From Escherichia phage W70, in the sequence record OP778610: a stretch of DNA of 64,000 nucleotides. The stretch is one strand, 5' to 3'. The notes under the pieces are model-generated. The model worked only from the letters and a program-made list of their open reading frames with translations, was not told the DNA's origin and searched no databases. Made by a program: the position numbers and the translations under genes. Positions 1 through 61,677 of this stretch are shown piece by piece; within the stretch, counting starts at the first letter, position 1, and every line of letters starts with the position of its first letter.

Positions 1-343
1 ATTGGAAAATTTTTTATATCCACAAAAATATAGGGCTTGTCAAGGTCTTTGATAAGAAATTTTCAGGAGGTGAGAATTATTCTCATTTGCAGAATAACGG
101 GCAGGGGTGGTGATTGCTTCGTGAAACCGTCCTCATCACCATGAATATATAATAGCACCGTTTTTGATTAGAAAGCAACAACATTTTAAAAATATTTTTC
201 GGTAAATTTTGGCCGAGCCACCGGCGATCCACCTTACAACCTGGCGGCGATGCCTGGTATGTTAGCCCCGCCTTTACGCCGTGGGGATGGCGATTGTTTT
301 CCTATGTAAGCATTATGGCCCCCTGGCGGGGCCGTTGTCAAGA

Positions 344-610
344 TTATTTTTTGTTTTCTTGCCAGGCCAGGACACCTAACCAAAAAATAGGATAACCGCG
401 TTTATCTTTTGGTATGTTGCTTTCCCCGCCACCGCCTTGCATCCATTCTACGCCACTGTTAAACATTTCAAGCTGATAAAGGTCGGTTATCTTTGTATCC
501 TTAAGGTTAAGGATTGTTTCAACCTTTAAGCCTGTTGCACTCGCCACTTGGTGGACCGTTCCACCTTGCCATTTTAAAGCGTGCATGAGGTGTAGTGTAG
601 TAGTTGTCAT
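344..610 (-). CDS. hypothetical protein (88 aa)
   Basis: Open frame on minus strand with weak RBS; no recognisable motif. Confidence 0.3.
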   Translation of the reverse strand: MTTTTLHLMHALKWQGGTVHQVASATGLKVETILNLKDTKITDLYQLEMFNSGVEWMQGGGGESNIPKDKRGYPIFWLGVLAWQENKK

Positions 611-722
611 GTTGTGTTGCCCTTTCTTTTGTTGTGCGCCCTGGTTGTCGCGGTAAAAAGACTATAAATGATCTTCCTTTATATAGCAAGGAAAAAGAAA
701 TTAAAAAAGATTAAAAATAATG

Positions 723-751
723 TTGACGTAGTGAATCTGGTAGCGTAGTAT
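723..751 (+). promoter_or_regulatory. sigma70-like promoter (TTGACG-17bp-TAGTAT)
   Basis: -35/-10 hexamers with 17-bp spacer upstream of ORF 809. Confidence 0.4.
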
Positions 752-808
752 TCATCTCATCGAACGGCGACATGCCAACAAGTAAACAAATAAAAGGGCA
801 ACAACAAA

Positions 809-994
809 ATGAATAAAAGAATTACAAACGTAAATCCTGGCGAACGTTTCCAACATGAGGGGCATTTGCACACTGTAGTAAGCAACAAAGAGCATACTGT
901 AAGAGTAAATAGAAATATCTTGCAACTTCGCGATCGTTTTGGTATCGTACAGACTTACACTTTCGAAGCAAATAAAACAGTTAAAACTTTCTGA
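809..994 (+). CDS. hypothetical small early protein (61 aa)
   Basis: ORF downstream of promoter; no recognisable motif. Confidence 0.45.
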   Translation: MNKRITNVNPGERFQHEGHLHTVVSNKEHTVRVNRNILQLRDRFGIVQTYTFEANKTVKTF

Positions 995-1005
995 GGATTT
1001 TTAAA

Positions 1006-1341
1006 ATGGCACTAGTCACTAAGTATTTCATTGAAGGCCAGCAAGCGGCGCAACAAGGTTACAGCCGTGTTACTCGTTACAAGAAAGAAGAAAACAAGAT
1101 TGAATTTTTCAAGGGTTACGATAGTGTAAACCGTGATGCAATGGTCCTACGCTTCGAATCCGATCCAGTGGGCAAGCCTGTTACCTCTTACCAGGCATCA
1201 CCGCAGATTGTTTATGTTGGTACTGTTAAAGAATGTAACGACAAGTTAATCACTTTGAAGCAGGCCGATCGTGCGGGTTACTTTGTTGTTTACACTGCTG
1301 ACGGTAAGCCTTACCAGTACGAAAGCAAATATTTTAAATAA
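1006..1341 (+). CDS. hypothetical protein (111 aa)
   Basis: ORF with GAGGA RBS 12 nt after previous stop. Confidence 0.5.
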   Translation: MALVTKYFIEGQQAAQQGYSRVTRYKKEENKIEFFKGYDSVNRDAMVLRFESDPVGKPVTSYQASPQIVYVGTVKECNDKLITLKQADRAGYFVVYTADGKPYQYESKYFK

Positions 1342-1347
1342 AAAGTA

Positions 1348-1405
1348 TTGACAGAAAGAAAGAAGTAAATTAAATTATACCACGTAACGCCGCAATCGTG
1401 CGGCA
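1348..1405 (+). promoter_or_regulatory. promoter (TTGACA) plus 5-prime stem-loop cassette
   Basis: TTGACA at 1348, AT-rich -10, hairpin CGCCGCAATCGTGCGGC before ORF 1423. Confidence 0.4.
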
Positions 1406-1422
1406 ATAAAAACTGATAGGAA

Positions 1423-1644
1423 TTGAACAAAATGGCTAAAATCATCATTAAAAAATCCCGTGTATCTTCTGTTGCTCGCGTCGAAATGGTAAACACTATG
1501 CCAGGTTACCGGACTCGCGAGGAAGCCCGAAGCGTTGCAAAACAGATTAAAGCCCGTGGCTTAACTGTAAGTGCACCGACCAAAACACAAGAAGGATGGA
1601 AGGTATCTATTAAATCCGGTACACTGTCGATCAATAAACACTAA
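1423..1644 (+). CDS. hypothetical basic protein (73 aa)
   Basis: ORF after promoter/hairpin cassette. Confidence 0.5.
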   Translation: MNKMAKIIIKKSRVSSVARVEMVNTMPGYRTREEARSVAKQIKARGLTVSAPTKTQEGWKVSIKSGTLSINKH

Positions 1645-1707
1645 TAGCCAAAACATTAACGGGGCAACTTTGCCCCTCACTAAATAACATTATCCAGGAG
1701 TATTAAC

Positions 1708-1866
1708 ATGACTAGCCAAAACACTAACATTGAAAAAATCAACATTACTAAAGAGCGTAAAGCATGGAATGAAACATTAAATCTGAAAGGTAAGAAGCTG
1801 AATAAAACTAAACGCGATCGCAGTACAAAGCGGGCCTTTTGTGAATTTACAGCGGATCAAGAATGA
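1708..1866 (+). CDS. hypothetical small basic protein (52 aa)
   Basis: ATG at 1708 after CAGGAG RBS; stop overlaps next ATG (ATGA); below the 60-aa ORF track cutoff. Confidence 0.4.
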   Translation: MTSQNTNIEKINITKERKAWNETLNLKGKKLNKTKRDRSTKRAFCEFTADQE

Positions 1867-2162
1867 TGATTAAAGTTATTGCACTTACTGCCTTATTGTG
1901 TATACCATTTTTGGCGCACGGTACTAAGTTTTACGGTGCTAACTTGATAGATTGTAAAGCTCATATGCTGGACCATGAAACAGGCAACAAATTTGTTAAG
2001 CCTTTCCAGATCAATCCGGCGGTGTTTACTGACGGTGTTTTATATCAGGAAGGTAAAGCCAGTACGCTGATAATCCATTACGATCCAGCGACAAAGAAAG
2101 GTAGTTTATCAATCCAGGTTGAAGGCGCGGAAGAGTTTTCAGGTAAAATAATCTGCAATTAA
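1863..2162 (+). CDS. hypothetical exported protein (99 aa)
   Basis: N-terminal hydrophobic signal-like segment MMIKVIALTALLCIPFLAHG. Confidence 0.5.
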   Translation: MMIKVIALTALLCIPFLAHGTKFYGANLIDCKAHMLDHETGNKFVKPFQINPAVFTDGVLYQEGKASTLIIHYDPATKKGSLSIQVEGAEEFSGKIICN

Positions 2163-2170
2163 TATGTTAA

Positions 2171-2199
2171 GGCCCGCCATTGTGCGGGCCTTTCTTTTA
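2171..2199 (+). terminator. rho-independent terminator
   Basis: GGCCCGC-loop-GCGGGCC hairpin followed by T-tract. Confidence 0.6.
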
Positions 2200-2222
2200 T
2201 GAAAATAATTTTGAAAATGTTG

Positions 2223-2291
2223 TTGACAGCACCGATTAAAAGCGTATGATGTATTACATCAGGACGGGGAACCAAACAAGTAACTCCCCGT
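2223..2291 (+). promoter_or_regulatory. promoter (TTGACA..TATGAT) plus stem-loop
   Basis: Hexamers with 16-bp spacer then hairpin ACGGGGA..TCCCCGT. Confidence 0.4.
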
Positions 2292-2340
2292 TAAGTAGTC
2301 CAGGAGTAAGACATACGAAAACCTCCCCTGATAAAATAGT

Positions 2341-2399
2341 TTGACAATAGTTTTTAGTACTGTATAATACATTACATCAAGGGGAGAATAGTTCTCCCC
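2341..2399 (+). promoter_or_regulatory. promoter (TTGACA-17-TATAAT) plus stem-loop cassette
   Basis: Consensus hexamers; hairpin GGGGAGAATAGTTCTCCCC; RBS then ATG 2420. Confidence 0.55.
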
Positions 2400-2419
2400 A
2401 CATCAAAGGAATCAAAACA

Positions 2420-2647
2420 ATGGCTATCGTAATCACTCGCGTATCTGGTACAGTTGGCAATGCGGCAGTAGTAGCGGTTATCACTAATAAGAAAGGTGCG
2501 GAACTACATTTTGCAATGTATAACTGGTCAGTTGATGAGTTTGGTCAGTACGCTAGTGTAGAATACATTGAAACCTATCAAGTGCCGTCGATTAGTTTAA
2601 CTGATTTGGGCGTTGAGCGTATCCTTTGCCTGGATGAATTAAATTAA
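2420..2647 (+). CDS. hypothetical protein (75 aa)
   Basis: ORF with AAGGAAT RBS after cassette. Confidence 0.5.
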   Translation: MAIVITRVSGTVGNAAVVAVITNKKGAELHFAMYNWSVDEFGQYASVEYIETYQVPSISLTDLGVERILCLDELN

Positions 2648-2655
2648 AAAAGTAC

Positions 2656-2716
2656 TTGCAAAGTAAAACGAATAACGTATAATACATTACATCAAGGGGA
2701 GAAATGATTCTCCCCA
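2656..2716 (+). promoter_or_regulatory. promoter (TTGCAA..TATAAT) plus stem-loop cassette
   Basis: Near-identical 27-mer GTATAATACATTACATCAAGGGGAGAA shared with cassette at 2362. Confidence 0.5.
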
Positions 2717-2732
2717 CTAAGAGGAAACTAAG

Positions 2733-2873
2733 ATGAAAACTTGCCAGTGTGGTAAAAAGTCTATTGCTGGTCTGCGTCGCGGTGTTGCTTTATGCCAGTA
2801 TCATTACAATAGTCAAGTATGGGGTAAAACGTGGGCTGACCAGGTTGAAGCAGCAAAGAAAGCAAAAAAGTAA
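2733..2873 (+). CDS. hypothetical Cys-rich small protein (46 aa)
   Basis: ATG after GAGGAAA RBS; CxC..C pattern; below ORF track cutoff. Confidence 0.4.
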   Translation: MKTCQCGKKSIAGLRRGVALCQYHYNSQVWGKTWADQVEAAKKAKK

Positions 2874-2930
2874 TTGACAGCAGGAAGAAAAAGAGTAAAC
2901 TGTATTACGTAGGGCGGCAATAGCGCCGCC
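2874..2930 (+). promoter_or_regulatory. promoter (TTGACA) plus stem-loop GGCGGCAATAGCGCCGCC
   Basis: Cassette similar to the one at 6724. Confidence 0.45.
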
Positions 2931-2951
2931 ACATCAAAGAGAGAAATCAAA

Positions 2952-3170
2952 ATGGCTAATATCCGCACACTGTTAAAAAATGCAAAAGAAGTTTTATTTT
3001 CTGACGATGAATATTTTAATCGCAATATCAAAGGCGTTCGGAACATTAAGGATATAAAGGAATTATTTGGAATCAAAGGTAACGTATATCGTAAAGGATT
3101 GCACGGTAATAATTTTGAATATAAGTTGGCTGATAGTGATTATAATTTTACACTGACCATCATTAGTTGA
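2952..3170 (+). CDS. hypothetical protein (72 aa)
   Basis: ORF with GAGAGA RBS after cassette. Confidence 0.5.
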   Translation: MANIRTLLKNAKEVLFSDDEYFNRNIKGVRNIKDIKELFGIKGNVYRKGLHGNNFEYKLADSDYNFTLTIIS

Positions 3171-3189
3171 AAGTTTTAATCTAGCGCTA

Positions 3190-3218
3190 TTGACTTAAGC
3201 CGATAGTGCTGGCATAAT
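3190..3218 (+). promoter_or_regulatory. sigma70-like promoter (TTGACT-17-CATAAT)
   Basis: Hexamers; cassette paralogous to promoter at 3483. Confidence 0.45.
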
Positions 3219-3250
3219 AACTTTTATCAAGAACATCAAAGGAAAGTAAA

Positions 3251-3463
3251 ATGGCTATCATTACTAAAATCAAAGTAAACAAAACACTGGTTAAGCTGGA
3301 AGAAGTGAAAGCAGGTTATAAAGTATCTTGGTGTGGCATGTATCGGATGTTCACAGATATAGACGATGCAATCAATTACTACACTAACACGATTAAAAAC
3401 TTTGTTCGTGCTGATGTGATTATTGCAGTGGAAGCACATAAAGCATCGAAAGAAAGTAAGTAA
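3251..3463 (+). CDS. hypothetical protein (70 aa)
   Basis: ORF with AAGGAAA RBS. Confidence 0.5.
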   Translation: MAIITKIKVNKTLVKLEEVKAGYKVSWCGMYRMFTDIDDAINYYTNTIKNFVRADVIIAVEAHKASKESK

Positions 3464-3482
3464 AATTATTACCACAGTACTA

Positions 3483-3511
3483 TTGACAACTACTGATAGT
3501 ACTGACATAAT
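3483..3511 (+). promoter_or_regulatory. sigma70-like promoter (TTGACA-17-CATAAT)
   Basis: Hexamers; shares CTGATAGTACTG..CATAATAACTTTTAT with promoter at 3190. Confidence 0.45.
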
Positions 3512-3556
3512 AACTTTTATTAAGTACTACAAATCAAACAAAGAGAGAATACAATC

Positions 3557-3796
3557 ATGGCTAACAACAAAACTTTTAACGGTCACAAAAACAAAACTCA
3601 TTGGAATGTTTCCTTGTGGATTAATAACGATGCATCACTGTATCGACTGGCTAATGATTTCATCGTCGCTAACACTAATCGTAACGATGCGGCCCGTCAT
3701 ATGATGTTATTTTTAGAACAAACCGGACAACATAAAACACCGGACGGATTCAAGTATAGTACTACTGCAATCCGTGCCGCGATGGTTGGGATGTAA
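3557..3796 (+). CDS. hypothetical protein (79 aa)
   Basis: ORF with GAGAGAA RBS. Confidence 0.5.
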   Translation: MANNKTFNGHKNKTHWNVSLWINNDASLYRLANDFIVANTNRNDAARHMMLFLEQTGQHKTPDGFKYSTTAIRAAMVGM

Positions 3797-3853
3797 TATT
3801 CAGTACTGAATCAATGGCGGGGAATAGTTCCCGCCTTTACTGAGGATTATCTA

Positions 3854-4138
3854 ATGAGCAAAGTAATTAATAGTAAAGTACTGAGTAAAACATTAACACT
3901 CACTGAGTGCACCAATGGCTTTTGGCTATACGATTCTACCCGTGGCATGAATATAGCTATGCAAGCGAAATCAGAGGAGGCTGCATTTGTTGAAGCCCTG
4001 GGATACTATCAGAGACGTCTACAGGAAGTAGAAAACAATTACACCAGCCTTAAAGCGAAAGTAGACCATTTCATCGGGCAAGTGGTAGAAGATGATGAGG
4101 ATGGTCACTATTGCGAACGCTGCGGATCTTACAGCTAA
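3854..4138 (+). CDS. hypothetical protein (94 aa), C-terminal CxxC
   Basis: ORF with GAGGA RBS, preceded by hairpin GGCGGGGAATAGTTCCCGCC. Confidence 0.5.
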   Translation: MSKVINSKVLSKTLTLTECTNGFWLYDSTRGMNIAMQAKSEEAAFVEALGYYQRRLQEVENNYTSLKAKVDHFIGQVVEDDEDGHYCERCGSYS

Positions 4139-4146
4139 AAAAGTAG

Positions 4147-4203
4147 TTGACACAAAGAAACAAAACAAGTAAATTAATCACATCAGGCGGGGAATGGACC
4201 CGC
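4147..4203 (+). promoter_or_regulatory. promoter (TTGACA-17-TAAATT) plus stem-loop cassette
   Basis: About 90% identical to cassette at 6264. Confidence 0.5.
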
Positions 4204-4225
4204 TAAAAGAGAAGAGAGAAATCAA

Positions 4226-4558
4226 ATGAGCTTTTTATCTATCGTACAGACTAACTTTGAAAATGATTTCATTGCTCAAGCTATCAACATCGACAAAGGT
4301 ATCCCAAATATCAATTTTGGTTACAATAGCGGTGGTTATGAAAGATACCAGTATTTTGTAACTGACGATGGAAGTGTTTTAGGTATCAATACAGTGATGG
4401 CTAATATCCAAAACATTAATTTCAATGATCCCGATGAGCGCTCATTTTATATCGTCGGTATCCAGGTAAACTATGAAGATGATACGTTAACCGATGATTA
4501 CACAGGTGAAGTATTAGAAAGTGTTTACGGTGATGAATCAGAAGAAGAAGAAGAATAA
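4226..4558 (+). CDS. hypothetical acidic protein (110 aa)
   Basis: ORF with GAGAGA RBS; C-terminal SEEEEE. Confidence 0.5.
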   Translation: MSFLSIVQTNFENDFIAQAINIDKGIPNINFGYNSGGYERYQYFVTDDGSVLGINTVMANIQNINFNDPDERSFYIVGIQVNYEDDTLTDDYTGEVLESVYGDESEEEEE

Positions 4559-4573
4559 GATTAGAAAAAGTAG

Positions 4574-4633
4574 TTGACGGAAAGAGTATAAAGAAGTAAG
4601 ATAATTAACGAATAGGGGGAAACATCTTCCCCC
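4574..4633 (+). promoter_or_regulatory. promoter (TTGACG-17-TAAGAT) plus stem-loop GGGGGAAACATCTTCCCCC
   Basis: Hexamers and hairpin before ORF 4658. Confidence 0.45.
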
Positions 4634-4657
4634 ATAAACAAAAAGAGAGATTGAAAA

Positions 4658-4840
4658 ATGACAGAACTGATTGCAACTACAAAGATCGAAGGCGTTAACG
4701 ATGTTACTTTGTCCTATGATCCTTCTACTCTGGTTTATGTTGTGAAATATGGCAGAATGATCGCAGAACTTGATTGCATTGATGAGGCTTTCGAAAAATA
4801 TTTCGAACTTATCAATATTGCTTATGATGACTACCGTTAA
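4658..4840 (+). CDS. hypothetical protein (60 aa)
   Basis: ORF with GAGAGA RBS. Confidence 0.45.
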   Translation: MTELIATTKIEGVNDVTLSYDPSTLVYVVKYGRMIAELDCIDEAFEKYFELINIAYDDYR

Positions 4841-4870
4841 TATACAACGTAAAAATAGAAAGGTGATAAA

Positions 4871-5080
4871 ATGATCAATGAAAAAACAATCAATGATGTT
4901 CGCGAGGAAGTTTTAGCCGTTGCTGTAGAATCGGGTGCACGTCAGGCATTTTGGAAAGCTACTGATCTTTACCCCGAGCAAGCCGAAAATATTCTTAATC
5001 AGGTCAGCGTTAAACTTGAACAAATAGGCAAACTGAAAACAAGTGAGCGCCTCGACCAAATCATTAAAGAAAGTTTTTGA
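4871..5080 (+). CDS. hypothetical protein (69 aa)
   Basis: ORF with AAAGGTGA RBS. Confidence 0.45.
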   Translation: MINEKTINDVREEVLAVAVESGARQAFWKATDLYPEQAENILNQVSVKLEQIGKLKTSERLDQIIKESF

Positions 5081-5144
5081 TTGACTTTTAACATTGCCCC
5101 TATTAGTATTCAGGGGCAAGATTAAAAGAAACAAGGACACAAAG

Positions 5145-5456
5145 ATGAACGATATTGTTAGCATTATAGGTTTACTGGGCGTAGGCTACGTCGCCACATC
5201 AATTACAATGAGTTACTTCAATAAAAGGCGTGATAAAATGTTTTGTTACTTTGAATACCGTTACCGTGGTAAGGTTGGATCATCCCGTGACTATGGTCCG
5301 ATGTTAGAGATTGATGCGGTTGGCGCTATGCAGTATCGCCAGTCACTAGGGGCTGAAATAATTTTTGAAGTGTACCGCAGTACAGAAGAAGAGATCCACG
5401 ACATTATTGACGAGCGTCAATATTACCACGAACAACAAACTAAACGCAGGGCTTAA
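5145..5456 (+). CDS. hypothetical membrane protein (103 aa)
   Basis: Start moved to internal ATG with AAGGA RBS; N-terminal TM helix. Confidence 0.45.
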   Translation: MNDIVSIIGLLGVGYVATSITMSYFNKRRDKMFCYFEYRYRGKVGSSRDYGPMLEIDAVGAMQYRQSLGAEIIFEVYRSTEEEIHDIIDERQYYHEQQTKRRA

Positions 5457-5459
5457 CAT

Positions 5460-5597
5460 ATGACTAATACAAACCGACAAAAAATCATCAAAACTAAAAA
5501 ACTTGATTTCAATACTTATCAAGAATGCAAGAAGAAAGTAAAAGATAAGCGAGAGAACAAGCGGCACGAATGGATAAGCAATACAATCGATCTTTAA
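5460..5597 (+). CDS. hypothetical small basic protein (45 aa)
   Basis: ATG 3 nt after previous stop; followed by terminator; below ORF track cutoff. Confidence 0.35.
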   Translation: MTNTNRQKIIKTKKLDFNTYQECKKKVKDKRENKRHEWISNTIDL

Positions 5598-5606
5598 TAT
5601 CAACCT

Positions 5607-5630
5607 AAGCCCACTATGTGGGCTTTTCTT
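5607..5630 (+). terminator. rho-independent terminator
   Basis: AAGCCCAC-loop-GTGGGCTT hairpin plus T-tract. Confidence 0.6.
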
Positions 5631-5643
5631 ATGGAGAACAGAC

Positions 5644-5871
5644 ATGATTAATATTCTTTCACTTACAGAAGTGATCCGCTTCCTCAAAAACAACGCCCTG
5701 GGAACGTCTATAACGTATCTAATCCCGCAAGGTAAGGATTATGCCAGCGTTACACGTTCAATCACTGCTACGGCTTCCAGAGAAGAAATAAAGGTCAGCG
5801 TAAGCCAATTGTTGATTGTTGATCCGTCATCTTGCGAGACTATCCAGGCAGTAAAGATAATTAGAAAATAA
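5644..5871 (+). CDS. hypothetical protein (75 aa)
   Basis: ORF with GGAGAA RBS. Confidence 0.4.
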   Translation: MINILSLTEVIRFLKNNALGTSITYLIPQGKDYASVTRSITATASREEIKVSVSQLLIVDPSSCETIQAVKIIRK

Positions 5872-5956
5872 TTTAAAAAACTTCTTGCATCCATTATTGA
5901 GAAGATGTACATTAGTTTCATCAAGACGAGATGATGACAATCAAAAGGTGATTACT

Positions 5957-6250
5957 ATGTTATACGAAGTTTTTGCGGGATTTTGTTTTTATGGTGCTGC
6001 CGCCGTTCGCCAATGTGATGATTATGTAGTTGAGTCATTCGATGATCCTTTGGCGTGTGAGATTGTTACTACGGCGTATGAGCAAGATCGCCGTTGGATT
6101 AATCCGGCCTGTATCGCATCGCCTGAGGTTGAACCTATGCCGGAAGGTGAGGAATTAACAGAGGAAGACTTGCAAGAAGTAAAAGAAGTTATGAGCTACA
6201 TGATTGATAATCTGGACGCTGAAAACTTACAACGGGCTTTGCAAAAATAA
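5957..6250 (+). CDS. hypothetical acidic protein (97 aa)
   Basis: Start moved to ATG with AAGGTG RBS. Confidence 0.45.
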   Translation: MLYEVFAGFCFYGAAAVRQCDDYVVESFDDPLACEIVTTAYEQDRRWINPACIASPEVEPMPEGEELTEEDLQEVKEVMSYMIDNLDAENLQRALQK

Positions 6251-6263
6251 TTTGAAAAAGTAG

Positions 6264-6320
6264 TTGACTCAAAGAAGCAAAACAAGTAAATTATTCACAT
6301 CAGGCGGGGAATGGCCCCGC
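6264..6320 (+). promoter_or_regulatory. promoter (TTGACT-17-TAAATT) plus stem-loop cassette
   Basis: Paralogue of cassette at 4147. Confidence 0.5.
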
Positions 6321-6336
6321 TAAACAAAAAGAGATT

Positions 6337-6717
6337 ATGAAAATGGCTAAAAATACTAACGTTTGTGATTACGCTAACCTGGTTACTCTGAATGCAGATT
6401 CTAAAATTAAACTAAGCGAGGTTGAAGCTATTCATATTCTGGCCCGTCGTTGGTTCCAACAATCATACGGCAATACTTATTTCTCTTTAAGTGTAGACGT
6501 GGAGATCGCTGGTAAATTGGTTCAAGTGGTTAGCGTGCCGTTCCAATATGGTTATGGTGATCATTTCGATACCGTGGCACTAGAAGAATTTAGCAAGGTT
6601 ATCAACATGGAAGGCAAGGAGTTTTCACGCGGTAGCTATCTATCCCGTTTTTGCCGTGACAACAATATCCCTGTTTATTCGAACGCCGTTGATGTTAAAC
6701 GCAAAAAAGATATGTAA
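6337..6717 (+). CDS. hypothetical protein (126 aa)
   Basis: ORF with AAGAGA RBS after cassette. Confidence 0.5.
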   Translation: MKMAKNTNVCDYANLVTLNADSKIKLSEVEAIHILARRWFQQSYGNTYFSLSVDVEIAGKLVQVVSVPFQYGYGDHFDTVALEEFSKVINMEGKEFSRGSYLSRFCRDNNIPVYSNAVDVKRKKDM

Positions 6718-6723
6718 TTATTA

Positions 6724-6782
6724 TTGACAGTACAAAGAAAACGAGTAAACTGTATTACATAGAAAGCGGGAACACTTCCCGC
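6724..6782 (+). promoter_or_regulatory. promoter (TTGACA..TAAACT) plus stem-loop GCGGGAACACTTCCCGC
   Basis: Paralogue of cassette at 2874. Confidence 0.45.
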
Positions 6783-6804
6783 TTATATTCTAGGAGTAAG
6801 AGAA

Positions 6805-7158
6805 ATGATCGAACAAATCAAAACTACGACGGCTAATGTAACGGGAACGGTAGCACACTTTACTAGTGATGAATCGCGGGGCGTTCCCTATTGTGCTGTA
6901 CATGTAAACACTGAGGGTAACTACTGGTTTACGGTTTACGGATCATATTCATTTGGACGGCCAGGGCATCAAAAAATTCTGGATAAAGTACAACCAACGG
7001 GTAAAAATATTACCGCTGAGATGTTTAATAAATCACTTGCAAAGTTAAAAGCACTGAAAGATTTTGGCTTTAAAGATCTAGTTATCAAACGTGATGAAAA
7101 ATTCCGCTTCCGTAATGATCTGGCAAATCGCTACTATGAAATCTATGAAGCACTTTAA
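6805..7158 (+). CDS. hypothetical protein (117 aa)
   Basis: ORF with AGGAG RBS. Confidence 0.5.
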   Translation: MIEQIKTTTANVTGTVAHFTSDESRGVPYCAVHVNTEGNYWFTVYGSYSFGRPGHQKILDKVQPTGKNITAEMFNKSLAKLKALKDFGFKDLVIKRDEKFRFRNDLANRYYEIYEAL

Positions 7159-7164
7159 TAAAAA

Positions 7165-7186
7165 GGGCCGCAATAGCGGCCTTTTC
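7165..7186 (+). terminator. rho-independent terminator
   Basis: GGGCCGCAATAGCGGCC hairpin plus TTTTC. Confidence 0.55.
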
Positions 7187-7268
7187 TATTGACACCTGCT
7201 AACCATTCCTTTAATATGCATCTTGTAGGGCAAGCAATAACGCAAGCCCACAAATAGGACAAACTATT

Positions 7269-7466
7269 ATGACCATCGCTAATGAACTGATCGCCGTATT
7301 GAATGAAGCCAAATCTAATGAAATCGATGTACAGATCAAGGAATTACCCAATGGCCTGATAGGTTGCACTTGCACCTGTATCGGAAGTGACTACACAGAG
7401 GTAAGCTCTCTAGAATCTCTCATTCGTCACTTGAAATCAATAGTTGAAGATTGGAGAATCATCTAA
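7269..7466 (+). CDS. hypothetical protein (65 aa)
   Basis: ORF; last gene of plus-strand early block. Confidence 0.45.
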   Translation: MTIANELIAVLNEAKSNEIDVQIKELPNGLIGCTCTCIGSDYTEVSSLESLIRHLKSIVEDWRII

Positions 7467-7603
7467 TAAACCAGGGGCCGCAATAGTGGCCCTTGTCATG
7501 TCCATCGGTGCGACTCTCCCAACCCTATTAATCCCTTCCCCATTTGGATCATCATAACTTACCTCATCTAATCATTAATCTAATCCCCTTTGGAATCTCT
7601 CCC

Positions 7604-8011
7604 CCACAAATCTAAACTAATCTGATAGCTTACCATAACATAATCCACAAAGAAAGAACTATTTTGCCCACAAAGAAAGGCAGTTTTAAAGAGATACCAT
7701 TGCCAGAGTATGGAGGTGGCGCGACCGTAGGGAGCGACACTATAAAACGAGTATACCCCTCCTACCGCTATGCGGTCATCGGTGATAACCGATATCGTTA
7801 CACGCTATCTGTTCTCTTCGTTTCCTCGTTTTATAGTGTCTATATGTAGTAATCTTTTATTCTTTGTCAATACATTATCGAAGATAATATTGAATTATTT
7901 AATGCTTTGTTATTCATATAAAGTGAATAGCTAGTCAATAGGAAGGCCGTTAGTGTGACCACACAAAGAGGCTATGCACCACAAAGAGAGGCCGTACTTG
8001 CCCACAAAAGG
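7604..8011. repeat. array of six CCACAAAG(A/G)(A/G) direct repeats (DnaA-box-like)
   Basis: Copies near 7604, 7645, 7668, 7959, 7978, 8001; TAATCCACA at 7642. Confidence 0.6.
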
Positions 8012-8117
8012 AGCAAACAAGCAAGGCGGTACGCCAGTTTGCTAATGAGCGTAGCTCTTTTGCTAGACAAAACTCTCTTCTCTCTTCTTTCCCAAAATAA
8101 ATTTTTTCTTGCTTTTA

Positions 8118-8285
8118 TTGCCAGAGTATGGCGGGGCGCTCAGGCTATTGATGGCCCTGATGGAGTCGCTCCTGCACAGTTGGGATAGTTCATCGTTGGA
8201 TAGTCACAAGTTGGTATTATTCTTCCCACTAGTTGGAACAGGCCAGAACTGGCGGGGCTTGGAGTCGCTCCACTTGTTGGACGGA
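8118..8285. repeat. duplicated TTGCCAGAGTATGG segment plus five GTTGG-type repeats
   Basis: TTGCCAGAGTATGG at 7700 and 8118; GGAGTCGCTCC twice; GTTGG every 15-20 bp. Confidence 0.55.
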
Positions 8286-8631
8286 AGAAGGGCGCTTGCA
8301 GTGCGTATAAGTTGTATTATGTTAAATGCAGATCGAAATCGGTATTCTAAACCAGATTCAGAAGTCAATAGAAATCTTTAACTTTATTGTTGGGGCAGCA
8401 CAACATTTTTCTTGACAAGTCGAATCAAAGATGTATTGTGGATTGAAAATAAATGAAGATAATGCTTGACTTCTTGGATATTTTGAAAACATCGGACCCC
8501 CTCCCCCTCCCCCACGGTCGCCGTGCCTGGCAGCAGTATCGATACGCTAGGATATTTTAGCCCCTACTGGACAAGACACCCCCCCGTCAGTTATAATGGG
8601 GGTATACCTATAGAAAAGTAAGGAGGTTGTA

Positions 8632-17642: not shown

Positions 17643-18102
17643 CCAACCCTGGTTTCAGTTTTGGAAGATCTCTTATAAACTCAGGATAGAGGACATTAAC
17701 GAAGTCAATCTCATCATCTGTGGGTTTTTGAATATCTTCGAAATACTCGTCAAGATTGAATATCTGCCAATCCTTACACCCTGCCTTTCGGACACCCATG
17801 AAGATTTCATTGTTACAGGTAGCCATCCAGGAGATCCTAGATCCTTTACCATTCGCATTCGGCAATGTTGAAACACAGAAGCGTGGTACTTCCTGAACCT
17901 TAAAACCCTCGTCATAGTATCCACGACCACGTTGAAATTTAAACTTGGTCTTTCCCACTCTTTGACTAATCTTCATATCTCGGCGAAAGCTGTGGTCCCC
18001 CGTATAGATCAGTTGACGAAGACACTGAGTATATCTGATCTTTTTCCAATTCCAATCTCGAATGAGTATTTCATAGACTTCCTTAAATGCTTCATACGCC
18101 AT
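17599..18102 (-). CDS. hypothetical protein (167 aa), PTDDEI..LYPE motif family
   Basis: ORF; C-terminal KPTDDEIDFVNVLYPEF. Confidence 0.5.
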   Translation of the reverse strand: MAYEAFKEVYEILIRDWNWKKIRYTQCLRQLIYTGDHSFRRDMKISQRVGKTKFKFQRGRGYYDEGFKVQEVPRFCVSTLPNANGKGSRISWMATCNNEIFMGVRKAGCKDWQIFNLDEYFEDIQKPTDDEIDFVNVLYPEFIRDLPKLKPGLDEIHKELRWRFGGY

Positions 18103-18331
18103 CGGAGGATTCCTTATCTAGAGCACCAACAATCTCGAACTTTGCTACGCCTAAAACAACCACATGACCCAAGGATTGTACACCTGTCCACGGAGTACCA
18201 TTCCTCTTAGGTCGCTTACCAGTTACATCGCAGAAATCATTCCGCATTTCTGTTGCATCAAACAACTCGCCTTTCGGAAAAACATCTTTGAAGTCAGCGA
18301 TCACGTTAAGACATTTCAGTTTCATATTCAA
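18092..18331 (-). CDS. hypothetical protein (79 aa)
   Basis: ORF. Confidence 0.45.
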   Translation of the reverse strand: MNMKLKCLNVIADFKDVFPKGELFDATEMRNDFCDVTGKRPKRNGTPWTGVQSLGHVVVLGVAKFEIVGALDKESSDGV

Positions 18332-18668
18332 ACACTCCTCTCTCTAATCTTTGTTTGGCAAGTAACTCCCTTTGTGCTCTAAGTGGCATCCTGAAAAATA
18401 TCACAACATTCTCCAAATCCGCTGCCCGTTTTTTAAGCCCTTTGGTGAATTTACCTTCCCGCTTAATTGCATCATATATACCCCTGTACTCCTCTTCAAT
18501 GGAGTTGTCTTCAAATATCTGGTTGGATACCATACTATCAATCTCCATACCGAGAGCTTCAAAGCTATACCAGTCTACATGTTCTTCTGTAACAGGACCT
18601 CTTTCTTTGTACACTTGTCCAGTTATTTCATTAACTACGATCGTTGTCATTGGAGTATCTCCTTGCAT
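18306..18668 (-). CDS. hypothetical protein (120 aa), FFRMP family
   Basis: ORF; C-terminal FFRMPLRAQRELL shared with next gene. Confidence 0.45.
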   Translation of the reverse strand: MQGDTPMTTIVVNEITGQVYKERGPVTEEHVDWYSFEALGMEIDSMVSNQIFEDNSIEEEYRGIYDAIKREGKFTKGLKKRAADLENVVIFFRMPLRAQRELLAKQRLERGVFEYETEMS

Positions 18669-18975
18669 TATACGGCATCCTGAAAAAGTTTAAAAGGTTG
18701 TAGATAGCAGCAACCCTCTCTCTTACCTTTTCGTCAGAGAAACAATCAGGACCTTCGCTGCAAAGTTTAAAATCTATATCTTCCCACTCAGCGACCACAG
18801 ATTCGTCTTCGAAAACTCCCTTTTCAAACATCATTCGAATCTCCATCTCCATACCCTTGAAGATTGTAAAAGTAACATCTTCAGGATCAAGGTATGATAC
18901 ATTGTCTATAAAGAGGCCCCTTTCGGGATAAATGACCATATGCAAAATAATCCTCCTGTGTCCAATATAATCCAC
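18631..18975 (-). CDS. hypothetical protein (114 aa), FFRMP family
   Basis: ORF; C-terminal FFRMPYNARRY. Confidence 0.45.
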   Translation of the reverse strand: MDYIGHRRIILHMVIYPERGLFIDNVSYLDPEDVTFTIFKGMEMEIRMMFEKGVFEDESVVAEWEDIDFKLCSEGPDCFSDEKVRERVAAIYNLLNFFRMPYNARRYSNDNDRS

Positions 18976-19063
18976 CCAGAAGCGATTTTGACGAGGTTTT
19001 CTTAAGATAATGATAAATCACCTTACCTCGTCGTAGACCTCGTTAGAATCGTTCTGAGAGCGT

Positions 19064-19318
19064 TTAAGCCATACCGAGCAAATTCATCTCTTTTAACAGG
19101 CCTTCCAAGGTAGCATTAAACAACACTGGCTTACCTTCCTCCAGCTTATTGAAGAAGATTTCATGAGTCTCATTGTCTATCTTCGCCATCTCTTTTACCA
19201 CTTCTTCTGACAAAAAGATATCGCTACCTCTTAACCCAGGGAACATTAAGAGGATTGCCGTTTTTGAATCAGTTGCCCAACCCTTTCCACCATCCAGACT
19301 GAATACCTTGATCATCAT
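19064..19318 (-). CDS. hypothetical protein
   Basis: Start trimmed to ATG with GGAG RBS. Confidence 0.4.
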   Translation of the reverse strand: MMIKVFSLDGGKGWATDSKTAILLMFPGLRGSDIFLSEEVVKEMAKIDNETHEIFFNKLEEGKPVLFNATLEGLLKEMNLLGMA

Positions 19319-19319
19319 T

Positions 19320-19616
19320 TTACTCCAAATTAGCCAGTGCAGTTCGGACTTCAAGAAGAGTTGCCTCTCTTGACTCATTTCTTTCCGAGAAATCACGAAT
19401 TATCATCTTGTACTTCATTTCTTCTTCAGTACGGAGAATCTTCTGTTCGATCAACTTGTAAACTTTGTCCGCTCTTTCTGGAAACAACGCTGCAAAGAGA
19501 TTCCAGTCTTCCAATCGACCTTCGTAAGACTCTCCAGAGGTAAAGTACCGATCTCTTTCGATGCTGTCAACAAAATAATAACCGAATTCACCATAACGCC
19601 AAGTTTCATTTTTCAT
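19320..19616 (-). CDS. hypothetical protein (98 aa), YFTS..EDWN family
   Basis: ORF; paralogous to 19778..20017. Confidence 0.5.
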   Translation of the reverse strand: MKNETWRYGEFGYYFVDSIERDRYFTSGESYEGRLEDWNLFAALFPERADKVYKLIEQKILRTEEEMKYKMIIRDFSERNESREATLLEVRTALANLE

Positions 19617-19774
19617 TTGATGTACCGCGCCGCAGCAGTGCCGATAAGGAATCCAGCAGGAACTGCGACGATGATAGCTTCAACCATTTTCAGGTCCGCT
19701 GCAACACAAGCTGCACCAACAACAACAGAACCAGCCCAGATAGCAATTACACGTTTCAAAAATTTAGTATTCAT
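19613..19774 (-). CDS. hypothetical small membrane protein (53 aa)
   Basis: AGGAGA RBS; two hydrophobic segments; ATGA overlap with next gene; below ORF track cutoff. Confidence 0.4.
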   Translation of the reverse strand: MNTKFLKRVIAIWAGSVVVGAACVAADLKMVEAIIVAVPAGFLIGTAAARYIK

Positions 19775-19777
19775 TCG

Positions 19778-20017
19778 TTAGTCTCCTGATTTTGTTAAGT
19801 TTTCTTTTATTTTTACGTATTCAATTAAAGAGTTTGCAAGTTCACCATCGATTTTCTCACAAACCATTAGTATCTCTCTTACCTTTTCGGGATGAACAGA
19901 CTCATAAAAGTTCCAATCCTCTGTTCTTCCTTCTGGAGTTTTAGAAGTGAAGTATTCTTCTCTGTCTTGCTCCGGTAAGAGATAATATACAAGATTCAGC
20001 CTTTTATCGTCAAGCAC
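19778..20017 (-). CDS. hypothetical protein (79 aa), YFTS..EDWN family
   Basis: ORF; paralogous to 19320..19616. Confidence 0.5.
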   Translation of the reverse strand: MLDDKRLNLVYYLLPEQDREEYFTSKTPEGRTEDWNFYESVHPEKVREILMVCEKIDGELANSLIEYVKIKENLTKSGD

Positions 20018-20026
20018 TTTATCACC

Positions 20027-20401
20027 TTATTCGTAAAAAAGTTTATCCGCTTGCTCATTCAACCAACCCTGGCGAAAAGCCCCCTTGAGTACCTCTGCCC
20101 ACTTCGGATTTGCTGCCTCTAAGAGAAGAATTTCTTCTTTCTCTATGTTCATAGGATCAGCAAAGAAATCCAAAATCTGTTCATTAAATATACCCTCTAT
20201 CAAGATCCCTTTATATTTCAACGTCAAACGTTTTGTCATAAAACCTTGAGATAACAAAGCCTCCTCCACATCGAGTTTCGTAGTTGGAGGGTTTGGAAAA
20301 GGAAAGCCCGTCATAGGTGTTGGCGATGCACCTGTCTTCACAAAGGTATTCCCTCCAGTATTATTGAAGAAACCTTTCGCATTTTTATCATAAAGCGACA
20401 T
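20027..20401 (-). CDS. hypothetical protein (124 aa)
   Basis: ORF. Confidence 0.5.
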   Translation of the reverse strand: MSLYDKNAKGFFNNTGGNTFVKTGASPTPMTGFPFPNPPTTKLDVEEALLSQGFMTKRLTLKYKGILIEGIFNEQILDFFADPMNIEKEEILLLEAANPKWAEVLKGAFRQGWLNEQADKLFYE

Positions 20402-20404
20402 ATT

Positions 20405-20842
20405 TCATACCCCCTCTTGAATTTTTATCTCTGCCTCGTCCAAAGCTTCACCCATTGCAAGGATATACCTTGAAATTTCAGGAAACAACGCTTCAAACAT
20501 CTCTATCTCTTCTTCAAGTATATCCGTTGGATCGAGGAAATACTCTTCAAGGACTATCCGCTTTGTCCCACTCTTGTTGCCATAAGTAACAAAAACGAAA
20601 CGATCAGGTTTGCCAATAGAATCTTTGGAGGTTCTCCATTGGAAAAGATGCCTGTTTGAACTTATGTTTATCCTTTTGTCAGCCTTGTCCAGCGGGATTC
20701 TAAAACTTACGGATGTTGACATTCCTTCGGATTGAGTCCATTTTTCACTCTTCTTAAAAATATTGTTCCGGTATCTGTTTTTACCTAAGGCATTAAAAGT
20801 CCACTGCCTGCTCAATCTCTCGATTATCTCTTTAGTTTTCAA
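20405..20842 (-). CDS. hypothetical protein (145 aa), PTD..EE..F.ALFPE motif
   Basis: ORF; C-terminal DPTDILEEEIEMFEALFPE. Confidence 0.5.
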   Translation of the reverse strand: MKTKEIIERLSRQWTFNALGKNRYRNNIFKKSEKWTQSEGMSTSVSFRIPLDKADKRINISSNRHLFQWRTSKDSIGKPDRFVFVTYGNKSGTKRIVLEEYFLDPTDILEEEIEMFEALFPEISRYILAMGEALDEAEIKIQEGV

Positions 20843-21360
20843 AACGGTATGTCCTCGTCAACAATAAATTTTATAGCATTCTTTACAGCCGCTTTATTCA
20901 GATGTTGAACACGCTGGAAGAACATTAGGTTCAAGTCAAGAAGAATATCATCATCTCCGTACAACGCCGTGAAAAGATCAAGCTCTTCATCTGTCGGATG
21001 CGTGGGATTCTCAAATAAGCCCTCAAACACCACCTGGGCCTCATTTCTTTTAGCCAGCGTGGTTGAGTCTCGATAGATATTTAATACCGTGTGTACATCA
21101 TCTACGCTTAGGATTTTGACACATTCCAGATCTCCTGTGTCACCATCGAGATAAAGAGTGATCGCAGGAGTTGACCAATTTGATTCACTTATTGCATAAA
21201 CGTAGATGCTTTTGCGATTACCAACTGCAATAGACTCTTCAATTTTCTTTTCTGCCGCCTTAAAGAAAGGTTGGTGTTTGATCCAATGCTCCCAACCAAT
21301 CCAACGAGCACCCTTACCATACGCATTCAGCACATGATTCTCAATGTTACGTTTACTCAT
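20839..21360 (-). CDS. hypothetical protein (173 aa), PTDEEL motif
   Basis: ORF; HPTDEELDLFTALY. Confidence 0.5.
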   Translation of the reverse strand: MSKRNIENHVLNAYGKGARWIGWEHWIKHQPFFKAAEKKIEESIAVGNRKSIYVYAISESNWSTPAITLYLDGDTGDLECVKILSVDDVHTVLNIYRDSTTLAKRNEAQVVFEGLFENPTHPTDEELDLFTALYGDDDILLDLNLMFFQRVQHLNKAAVKNAIKFIVDEDIPF

Positions 21361-21369
21361 TTAAAACCC

Positions 21370-21410
21370 CCATAAAAGAAAAGCCAGCCACCTTTCGGTG
21401 ACTGGCCTAG
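21370..21410 (-). terminator. rho-independent terminator (minus strand)
   Basis: GCCAGTCACC-loop-GGTGGCTGGC hairpin plus T-run. Confidence 0.55.
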
Positions 21411-21412
21411 AG

Positions 21413-21880
21413 TTAGCTACTAATCACCACGAATGCAGTAACTATAGCATACAGAAATCCAATTGCAACAAAAATTATCATAATGGGGTCAGAGGTTACT
21501 CGCTTAAGTTTTCCTAAGAAAGTTGATCGGTATTTGTGTTCCTTCTCCATTTTGTTTATCAAAATGATGAAAGAGTTGATATGAATATCTTCAGCACTCT
21601 CTGCAAAAGGTGTGTACTTGAACGTACCTTCTGTATTTGCAACAAAGCTGCGATGATACTTTTTACCGTCATAACTTTCTATAAGAAGACCATCCTTTGT
21701 CACCCGATAACTGACTGAACGGAACTTGTCATAAAAAACGTATGCCCTGAATCCATCTTGATCGGGAACAGCCTTTCTGACGTAGCCGTCAAAAAACTCC
21801 AATCTCTTTCCAGAATTCAGTTCCAAGTTGTCAGCTAACATAGGGAGTTGACTTACGTATGTAAAGTACATAATGATCAT
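21413..21880 (-). CDS. hypothetical tail-anchored membrane protein (155 aa)
   Basis: C-terminal TM helix PIMIIFVAIGFLYAIVTAFVVISS. Confidence 0.5.
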   Translation of the reverse strand: MIIMYFTYVSQLPMLADNLELNSGKRLEFFDGYVRKAVPDQDGFRAYVFYDKFRSVSYRVTKDGLLIESYDGKKYHRSFVANTEGTFKYTPFAESAEDIHINSFIILINKMEKEHKYRSTFLGKLKRVTSDPIMIIFVAIGFLYAIVTAFVVISS

Positions 21881-22072
21881 CCTTCCACTAAGCTGAAATC
21901 ATTTTATCATATTATGAAAAAATACAACAGCGAAGATCGGTCATGAACACTATGTTGTTAATTTTTACAACAGGACTCCAAAAAAGTATTTAAATCACTT
22001 AAATCGATTTTAATACATAGAAAATACCTATGGACCAGATCTGACCCATAGGCTATACCTTAATGTGAAATT

Positions 22073-22651: not shown

Positions 22652-22652
22652 T

Positions 22653-23156: not shown

Positions 23157-23167
23157 TTTCTCTCCTC

Positions 23168-40877: not shown

Positions 40878-40964
40878 TTTAATCTCCTCGTACAACATTT
40901 TAAAAGTGGGGCAACATGCCCCAGCGCCGATAATGATATAAAATTAACTAACCAATGTCAATAA

Positions 40965-61413: not shown

Positions 61414-61485
61414 GGCCCTGTAGCTGGACGGTTCAAGCAAGCGACTCATAATCGCCAGACGGTGGTTCGATTCCACCCAGGGCCA
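61414..61485 (+). tRNA. tRNA with anticodon CAT (Met or Ile2)
   Basis: Acceptor GGCCCTG/CAGGGCC, T-arm GGTGG-TTCGATT-CCACC, loop CTCATAA, CCA encoded. Confidence 0.8.
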
Positions 61486-61621
61486 CCATACAAAGTCGGG
61501 TAGCTCCCGATAAGTCGTCGGACTGATGTTCCCTGACTATGAGTTCTCTCAACGATAACGACGTAGATCACAGCAGAAACGGCGCACCCTATTATATTTC
61601 TTAATACATTTCAATAAGTTC

Positions 61622-61650
61622 TTGACATAATCCTATTATACTGCTAATAT
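61622..61650 (+). promoter_or_regulatory. sigma70-like promoter (TTGACA-17-TAATAT)
   Basis: Hexamers upstream of ORF 61678. Confidence 0.5.
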
Positions 61651-61677
61651 AGATATATCGACTGAATTGAGGTGTTT

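Follow-up and report, generated by a model that had tools for sequence, protein, structure and literature searches.

What is the role of the stem-loops that stand beside the promoters of the small genes in the segment 700-7500 (the array) of Escherichia phage W70? The window, that is, the whole 64,000-nucleotide stretch of sequence record OP778610 that was analyzed, comes from a coliphage of the Vequintavirinae, and its nearest records are Vequintavirinae as well. These rV5-like myoviruses have genomes of about 140 kb. The array contains 21 small plus-strand open reading frames (ORFs) of 45-124 amino acids, the function of which is unknown, and 25% of it is intergenic. An earlier note on the portion 1340-6790, which is 92-94% identical to Escherichia phages A7_1, A5-4, A73, and UPEC06 (Vequintavirinae), had described a promoter and a hairpin in front of at least ten small genes, and had proposed that these cassettes be aligned and their RNA folded. 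In the present analysis, the array seems, with rather more confidence than doubt, to be a variable small-gene region built from composite cassettes of the promoter-early stem-loop (PeSL) type, which are known from the T4-like pairs RB49/phi1, T4/PST, and KVP40/nt-1 (Arbiol et al. 2010, PMC2839356; Comeau et al. 2014, PMC4122927). The earlier note missed both this likeness and the role of the cassettes as recombination joints.

Sigma-70-like promoters that agree with the consensus in at least 10 of 12 positions lie on the plus strand with their -35 boxes at 1348, 2223, 2341, 2656, 2874, 3190, 3483, 4147, 6724, and 7189. These ten sites in 601-7600 stand against 1.76 +/- 1.44 in first-order Markov simulations of the same strand and interval, and the TTGAC-type -35, AT-rich -10, and 16-17 bp spacer described earlier are thereby confirmed. 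Weaker sites are found at 723, 4574, 5081, and 6264. An upstream A-tract, AAAAAGTAnTTGAC, is present at most of the promoters; the window holds 14 matches to it against 5.0 +/- 2.0 expected, and the four exact matches are all inside the array. When every distinct promoter from the window, A7_1, A73, UPEC06, and the jumbo phage 121Q was aligned, a CA or CG step was found to be conserved 7-8 nt past the -10. Its distance from the -10 equals that of the mapped or annotated T7 A1 start, and several cassettes of the relatives begin with ATCGAGAG, as the T7 A1 RNA does. The predicted start was therefore placed at this pyrimidine-purine step, with 3-5 unpaired nt predicted ahead of the stem. The array promoters seem to be strong and of the host type, and would be readable by the host RNA polymerase without phage factors.

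The composite unit follows a common plan: an A-rich UP-like tract, the -35, the spacer, the -10, 6-7 nt to the CA or CG, a further 4-5 nt, the hairpin, and the leader. The stems consist of 6-10 bp and are rich in G on the 5' side and in C on the 3' side. The leader past the hairpin (15-25 nt) is A-rich and unstructured and carries the ribosome site, and the ATG is often found as ATGGCT. GC hairpins with folding energies of -9 to -13 kcal/mol lie at 1389, 2263, 2381, 2696, 2913, 4186, 4615, 6303, and 6764; with an imperfect hairpin at 7228, ten promoters have a downstream hairpin. Its onset is 11-13 nt past the -10, which corresponds to about +4 to +6 of the predicted mRNA. In the folding check proposed earlier, -10 kcal/mol or better was reached by 11 of 16 40-mers anchored on promoters and by 7.9% of background 40-mers. 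Of the 15 promoter-like sites in the array, 10 have the composite of promoter and hairpin; of the 51 in the rest of the window, both strands being counted, one has it (Fisher p = 1.4e-7). Over five phages, 94 distinct segments downstream of promoters were folded; 56 reach -9 kcal/mol or better, and in 33 of these the first paired base lies 11-13 nt past the -10. In some relatives, the helix reaches within 1-3 nt of the predicted 5' end.

Eight genes in 1340-6790 carry the full unit. They belong to cassette c1348 (1339-1434; A-tract, -35 at 1348, -10 TAAATT at 1371, hairpin 1389-1404, ATG at 1432; repeat family D1), c2341 (2336-2422; TTGACA, 16-bp spacer, and TATAAT, matching in 12 of 12 positions, hairpin 2381-2399, ATG at 2420), its paralogue c2656 (2647-2735; TTGCAA, 16-bp spacer, TATAAT, hairpin 2696-2715, ATG at 2733; D10), c2874 (2865-2954; -35 at 2874, -10 TAAACT at 2896, hairpin 2913-2930, ATG at 2952; D1 and D5), c4147 (4138-4228; -35 at 4147, -10 TAAATT at 4170, hairpin 4186-4204, ATG at 4226; D4), c4574 (4565-4660; -35 TTGACG at 4574, -10 TAAGAT at 4597, hairpin 4615-4633, ATG at 4658; D1), c6264 (6255-6345; -35 at 6264, -10 at 6287, hairpin 6303-6321, ATG at 6343; D4), and c6724 (6715-6807; -35 at 6724, -10 TAAACT at 6746, hairpin 6764-6784, ATG at 6805; D5), all on the plus strand. 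This means that the arrangement is real, whereas the count of at least ten genes is not reached: the ninth cassette, c2223, has no gene, and the tenth, c7189, lies outside 1340-6790. In the latter (7162-7271, plus strand), a terminator at 7162-7185 is followed by the -35 at 7189, the -10 at 7212, the imperfect hairpin at 7228-7249, and the ATG at 7269.

Other positions of the hairpin relative to the promoter are also observed on the plus strand. In c3190 (3174-3253), an inverted repeat at about 3182-3211 lies over the -35 at 3190, the -10 is CATAAT with an upstream TG, and the ATG is at 3251; in its paralogue c3483 (3473-3559; D6), the repeat 3475-3504 lies over the -35 at 3483, and the ATG is at 3557. 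Both had been counted among the hairpin cassettes, but neither has a GC hairpin downstream of the promoter. In c5081 (5081-5147; ATG at 5145), the -10 TAGTAT at 5104-5109 is within the loop of the hairpin 5094-5119, and an unrelated cassette of A7_1 likewise has its -10 inside a hairpin loop. The stem-loops at 2169 and 7162 are upstream of a promoter and have a T-tract, and those at 1661, 3816, and 7472 have no promoter. Positions over the -35, over the -10, upstream, and without a promoter mean that a single function in the 5' untranslated region cannot cover all of the hairpins.

The alignment of promoters and hairpins that had been proposed revealed, in addition to the common plan, covariation in the stems. 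An unanchored MAFFT alignment of the hairpins was out of register, and it was redone with artificial constant flanks so that the columns were centered. In the loop-centered alignment of 21 distinct hairpins, 82% of the cells are paired, compared with 43-60% with slid partners, and both sides have changed in six of the nine stem pairs. The covariation score, 0.444, was equalled by none of 500 shuffles, for which the value is 0.19. One and the same position is taken in the window by at least seven stems of unrelated sequence. Close variants of a hairpin differ chiefly by transitions compatible with G-U pairs, and pairing is kept; the stems of c3190 and c3483 differ by compensatory changes. The more stable RNA is that of the plus strand in 29 of 48 segments and that of the minus strand in 17 (p = 0.03), and in 26 of 28 hairpins, the 5' half contains more G than C. 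Identity to the relatives is 93-97% for the hairpins and 92-96% for intergenic DNA, compared with 86-89% for third codon positions. The covariation, the conservation above the level of third codon positions, and the slight folding advantage of the plus strand together support the view that the hairpins are structures under selection at the RNA level.

Similarity among the cassettes is independent of the genes behind them. The pair c4147/c6264 is 91% identical over 80 bp, and the downstream proteins are unrelated. The values are 88% over 51 bp for c2341/c2656, 87.5% over 40 bp for c2874/c6724, in which only the promoter is shared and the hairpins differ, and 79% over 56 bp for c3190/c3483. All four pair scores (50-125) are above the best of 500 shuffled pairs (27), so the pairs named earlier hold; the figure of about 90% over 60-75 bp applies only to c4147/c6264. 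Tandem gene duplication as the origin of the alike cassettes was ruled out, because no two of the array proteins are related. Comparison of the sequences thus indicates that cassettes of 60-100 bp have been kept similar whatever gene follows.

The same elements are, as the comparison shows, the points at which genes are deleted, inserted, and exchanged among relatives and with unrelated jumbo phages. Against three close relatives, collinearity breaks at 2269 (in the c2223 hairpin), at 2336-2362 (c2341, from the -35 to the -10), at 3231-3240 and 3463-3480 (inside c3190 and c3483), at 3796 (a stop codon), at 4137-4139 (the first bases of c4147), and at 7040-7052. The last is the sole break within coding sequence; there is a 13-bp overlap at this joint, and the window lacks about 6.6 kb (about 20 small genes) there relative to A7_1. 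Thus, six of the seven breaks are in, or at the edge of, intergenic DNA or cassettes (binomial probability of about 0.001 by our own estimate, given the intergenic share of the array). Gene 3251-3463 is missing from A73 and UPEC06, where a hybrid is found that consists of the left half of c3190 and the right half of c3483. The A7_1 counterpart of the array is about 15 kb, and gene content differs among close relatives.

In 121Q (Asteriusvirus, 348 kb), genes 2420, 2733, 2952, 3251, 3557, 3854, 4226, and 6805 have matches at 70-85% nucleotide identity. These eight genes are reordered there, and the ends of the blocks coincide with the -10, with stop codons, or with the interior of hairpins. The c2341-type cassette occurs at 508 places in 52 phage records, mostly as 10-24 copies per jumbo phage genome, while the c4147 type is nearly confined to the clade of the window; cassettes are common to Vequintavirinae, Asteriusvirus, and Justusliebigvirus. 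A separate observation concerns the string AGTACT, which is found eight times in 2341-4138 (1.8 kb) but once in the 56.5 kb that remain, against an expectation of 17.8; numerous other 6-bp palindromes are missing from 7501-64000 (0 observed, about 8 expected). In 121Q, AGTACT is found 78 times over 11.4 kb as a piece of the promoter consensus. AGTACT was considered as an operator and dropped, since it belongs to the 121Q-type consensus AAAAAGTAC-TTGCAA and AGTACTG-TATAAT. The pattern points to avoidance of restriction sites in the backbone and to a 121Q-like source for the 2341-4138 block.

The gene-less cassette c2223 (2214-2335, plus strand) has its -35 at 2223, its -10 at 2245, a long-loop hairpin at 2263-2292, and a conserved leader of about 45 nt. 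The predicted transcribed part, about 2257-2335, is a leader of about 80 nt without a start codon, and it runs directly into promoter c2341. This leader is found, at 90-96% identity, in 44 phage records, which belong to three groups, namely the Vequintavirinae clade of the window, the Asteriusvirus jumbo phages (2-4 copies each), and Justusliebigvirus. Among these records, the promoter spacer and the downstream gene vary, and a c2341-type promoter always comes next. The idea that c2223 is a recent deletion scar was rejected in view of this conservation. The predicted fold has the 5' AUCAGG paired with CCUGAU; no covariation was found in the leader, which is too conserved, and the fold is a prediction only. 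The leader may be considered a candidate small RNA or regulatory leader. A variant in UPEC06 (L003 3905-3985) and 121Q (L002, about 6785-6900) agrees with the T7 A1-A2 leader region (T7 positions 536-587; L007 137-188) in 40 of 51 positions, including the shared string TAAGTAGAC..TAAGTCG..ACGAAAAAC. The alignment scores are 43 for UPEC06 and 40 for 121Q, against highest values of 33 and 38 in 300 shuffles. A database-wide BLAST search with the leader did not recover T7-like phages, and the likeness is pairwise and short.

How might the hairpins act? The reading that we favor, and hold to be somewhat better founded than not, is that the cassettes are of the PeSL type and that the hairpin has a two-sided role at the RNA level. 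Each gene would have a strong promoter to itself. In the mRNA of its own gene, the hairpin would come first among the structures; in read-through RNA, it would come last, behind the preceding gene. As a result, every cistron would be bracketed by stem-loops. These might damp read-through or make it pause, stop 3' exonucleases once the A/U-rich leader has been cleaved, give the 5' end of the mRNA partial protection, and keep the immediate surroundings of the ribosome site constant irrespective of where a transcript began. We infer that the hairpins probably work by such bracketing, and that they are probably neither plain terminators nor simple 5' stabilizers.

Several points weigh against the bracketing of cistrons by PeSL-type cassettes. 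The covariation was obtained from an alignment anchored on predicted loops, which favors structure, and from related sequences; many of the cassettes are paralogous or orthologous, so that the counts of promoters and hairpins are not independent. BLAST of the window cassettes against the PeSLs of RB49 gave no extended match, the only common elements being the UP/-35 motif and short leader strings. No data on transcript ends, promoter activity, or termination were found in the literature on this phage or its relatives, including transcript mapping for Vequintavirinae or Asteriusvirus. Early expression of the array genes is presumed, the timing being taken from the promoter type alone. Given the missing U-tract, the terminator activity of one RB49 stem-loop may not carry over to the window, and with 3-5 unpaired nt at the 5' end, shielding from RppH and RNase E is predicted to be partial at best. 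In one study, a simple orthogonal stem-loop was a negligible obstacle to RNase E scanning, and a pAUCA-stem RNA served as a working substrate of the enzyme (PMC11194081). Finally, the 121Q orthologue of c2341 (121Q position 7845) has no hairpin, and hairpins are thus dispensable in some cassettes.

The alternatives differ in which of these structures they explain. If the hairpins were only 5'-terminal stabilizers of the ompA/papA kind, blocking RppH and the 5' sensor of RNase E, their fixed short distance from the predicted start would be accounted for, as would the helices that reach almost to the predicted 5' end in some relatives and the downstream hairpins of c2223 and c7189, which are present despite a canonical terminator already ahead. 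Secondary structure at the 5' end is established as stabilizing in E. coli (PMC3997798). However, most predicted 5' ends carry 4-5 unpaired nt, and RNase E acts on a pAUCA-stem substrate (PMC11194081); RppH prefers single-stranded 5' ends, and that of B. subtilis needs at least two unpaired nt and prefers three or more (PMC3997798). Moreover, no comparable hairpin follows c723, the promoter with which the array opens, no promoter goes with the hairpins at 1661 and 3816, those of c3190, c3483, and c5081 are upstream of the start and outside their own mRNA, and the 121Q orthologue of c2341 does without one. The suggestion in the earlier note of a 5' stabilizing structure thus retains its basis for the main class, which would lie at the 5' end of its own mRNA, while a pure stabilizer is doubtful and, all in all, unlikely. 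A somewhat lower probability is given to the hairpins being terminators or strong attenuators of the upstream gene, their place within the next promoter unit being a matter of packing. One RB49 stem-loop lowered downstream lacZ about as much as rrnB T1 (PMC2839356), the promoterless hairpins (1661, 3816, and 7472) sit past genes, and c723, which has no same-strand gene upstream, also has no stable hairpin. Against this, the 8 nt past the stem contain only 0-2 U in eight of the ten promoter-proximal hairpins, compared with 5-6 at the terminators 2169 and 5607. A canonical U-tract is found in the array only at 2169, 5607, and 7162, and a terminator scan of its plus strand flags 2169 and 5607 alone. 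Strong termination by the cassette hairpins is therefore not expected, as had been supposed from their lack of a U-tract, and they are non-canonical as terminators. The genome has canonical hairpin-plus-T-run terminators elsewhere (2169, 5607, 7162, and the D3 repeats on the minus strand), and a tight spacing of 11-13 nt from the -10 would be needless for a terminator.

Binding of a protein to DNA is less probable still. Inverted repeats over the -35 (c3190 and c3483), over the -10 (c5081), and at +5 to +25 are at repressor-type sites, and could be imagined as operators at which a phage or host regulator shuts off early promoters. The arms, however, have no common sequence and the stems include the unrelated set noted above; what is conserved is pairing, with G-U tolerated, rather than sequence, and the asymmetric G-rich and C-rich arms point to RNA. 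A common regulator-binding site, another of the functions suggested earlier, is thus unlikely, because neither arms nor loops share a sequence. The least probable view is that the hairpins have no function and are passengers in cassettes spread by duplication and recombination. The cassettes are indeed paralogous and mobile, and the hairpin is missing from some orthologous ones, but compensatory changes and G-U transitions preserve the stems, hairpin identity is well above that of third codon positions, and in many different promoters the same position is taken by stems that have no relation to one another. A further possibility, about as improbable as termination, is that the start-proximal hairpins and the leader 2257-2335 are dedicated RNA signals, for example for transcript protection or timed destruction, or that the cassettes are recombination elements ferrying single genes. 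In the former case, early transcripts could be marked for a host or phage RNA-degrading factor; in the latter, single genes could be moved between unrelated coliphage families via excised intermediates. Two known kinds of RNA signal were also looked for. RNase III processing sites of the T7 early type have a long duplex, of some 20 bp at the least, and the array stems measure only 6-10 bp. An Rfam scan of 1-9500 (E-value up to 1), in which a hit is a score at or above the gathering score of the family, gave only a sub-threshold Trp_leader match, regarded as due to chance, on the stem of the 2169 terminator.

The remaining elements of the array are as follows, all on the plus strand. The first promoter, c723 (713-811), has the -35 TTGACG at 723, a 17-bp spacer, the -10 TAGTAT at 746, and the ATG at 809; the 40-mer past its -10 folds at only -4.0 kcal/mol. 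The promoterless hairpin GGGGCAACTTTGCCCC (1661-1676) is between genes 1432-1644 and 1708-1866 and has no U-tract, and that at 3816-3835 is 5' of gene 3854-4138. The 121Q counterpart of the latter has a promoter, and the 121Q homology begins inside the stem. The intrinsic terminator 2169-2198 (a 9-bp stem followed by TCTTTTAT) is directly 5' of promoter c2223, and that at 5607-5633 (an 8-bp stem followed by TTCTTATG) is ahead of gene 5644-5871. A strong hairpin with a weak T-tail (7472-7495) is past the last array gene. A weak candidate, c5885 (5875-5959), has an A-tract, TTGCAT at 5885, a 17-bp spacer, TACATT (7 of 12 positions), an AU-rich hairpin of 5-6 bp, and the ATG at 5957. The 14-mer CATCAAGACGAGAT at 5917-5930, just past the putative -10 of c5885, is identical in sequence and position to one in the RB49 PeSL leaders, and ribosome-site strings like GGAGAATCAAACAATGGC are also common to RB49 and the window. 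The sole composite outside the array is at 40898-40975 on the minus strand, with TTGACA, a 17-bp spacer, TATCAT, and GGGGCATGTTGCCCC, ahead of the minus-strand gene 40404-40898.

The small ORFs of the array are real genes, as judged from their PHROG matches and from the pattern of identity by codon position. Of 20 scanned, 18 have PHROG matches, all to families of unknown function; one secondary, weak match carries the name DNA ligase. Identity to three relatives is 96-98% at codon positions 1-2, compared with the lower value at third positions given above. Gene 6805-7158 is a fusion, residues 1-76 resembling phrog_9227 and residues 82-117 the C-terminal end of phrog_12277. Downstream of the array, no convincing ORFs are found in 7500-9250. 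The part 7040-8537 is a 90% match to A7_1, and 8537-9247 (710 bp) has only 370 bp at its A7_1 counterpart. The genome map in the rV5 paper likewise has a "non-coding" box. From about 9.3 kb to 59 kb, nearly all long ORFs are on the minus strand. The D3 repeat family (CAATAAAAAACCGCCCCGAAGGGCGGTTAA) is found at 12177, 33851, 37610, 43655, and 51939; read on the minus strand, its members are canonical hairpin-plus-T-run terminators of minus-strand genes. Five tRNA genes (Met, Tyr, Gly, Gln, and Pro) are in 61414-63124.

If the PeSL reading is true, cassettes of this type would extend past the T4-like phages to rV5-like, phi92-like, and 121Q-like coliphages, and the circulation of cassettes with their small genes among unrelated groups would be a concrete mechanism for mosaic early regions rich in genes of unknown function. 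The cassettes could also guide the annotation of therapeutic coliphages, in which they would mark early promoters, the starts of genes, and probable joints of recombination. The unit of promoter, 5' hairpin, and unstructured leader is naturally compact and is a candidate for an insulated expression part.

The array may finally be compared with known systems. The T7 promoters A1, A2, and A3 are likewise strong and of the host type, with A-tracts and an equal distance from the -10 to the start, and the relatives' cassettes share the first eight transcribed nt with A1. However, three T7 promoters precede one long transcript processed by RNase III, whereas each small gene of the array has a single promoter. 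Lambda nut sites, too, place a small hairpin a short way past an early promoter. In contrast to these, no boxA like CGCTCTT is found in 601-7600, the stems and loops are not conserved in sequence, the loops varying between cassettes, and there is one hairpin per gene, not per operon; a nut/boxA reading was ruled out on the absence of boxA. Intrinsic terminators have in common with the cassette hairpins a GC-rich stem of 6-9 bp with a short loop, in intergenic DNA and on the coding strand. They differ in that the cassette hairpins mostly lack a U-tract and are downstream of the next promoter; furthermore, the 5' arms at 2169, 5607, and 7162 are mixed or C-rich and the stems are followed by T-runs, whereas the 5' arms of the cassettes are G-rich. 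The 5'-terminal stabilizers of ompA and papA (Emory, Bouvet and Belasco 1992, as cited in PMC3997798) show, as far as that account goes, the same combination of a GC-rich hairpin near the 5' end of a highly expressed mRNA and an unstructured leader with the ribosome site. Stabilizers of the ompA type have their stem at, or within 1-2 nt of, the 5' end; the predicted starts of the window would leave a tail of 3-5 nt, long enough for RppH and RNase E, and window hairpins are also present where no 5' end is possible.

The closest agreement is with the PeSLs, for which five stem-loop positions, with poly-G followed by poly-C, have been described in RB49/phi1 (PMC2839356; PMC4122927). The four defining features, namely the promoter, the position of the stem-loop, the start of a small gene in a variable cluster, and the joints, were all found in the array. 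Further marks of the PeSL kind are activity of the promoter in vivo, attenuation or termination of transcription by the stem-loop, and mini-circles that arise when cassettes recombine. Both systems have an AT-rich upstream tract, a near-consensus sigma-70 promoter, a stem-loop of a G-run and a C-run, a ribosome site, and the ATG of a small gene; in both, the genes are of unknown function and clustered in a variable region, and the joints of insertions and deletions between close relatives fall in the cassettes. All five published stem-loop positions are present in the array. The UP/-35 string TAAAAAAGT(A/T)GTTGACA and leader strings such as CATCAAGACGAGAT are common to the window and RB49. When the window cassettes were compared with those of RB49 (L006, reverse strand, 14400-24200), 49 of 180 pairs were at or above the 99th percentile of shuffles, a result driven by the UP/-35 string, for which convergence on a strong promoter is possible. 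The phage of the window belongs to the Vequintavirinae and not to the T4-like phages, the scope of the published descriptions, which is a boundary of the literature and no criterion of mechanism; in the literature, composite cassettes were found described for T4-like phages only and none for rV5-like or 121Q-like phages. The rV5 paper gives 33 promoters and 20 terminators as separate lists, and the CBB paper describes RpoD-like promoters with UP elements ahead of short early genes. The hairpin of the window is mostly at +4 to +6, whereas that of RB49 is mostly between or over the promoter hexamers; being downstream of the predicted start, the window hairpin would be transcribed from its own promoter. 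By anatomy and behavior, as far as sequence comparison reaches, the cassettes appear to be of the PeSL kind and would call for no new mechanism. What is new is the host phage groups, the dominance of start-proximal hairpins, and the sharing of cassettes together with their genes between unrelated coliphage families.

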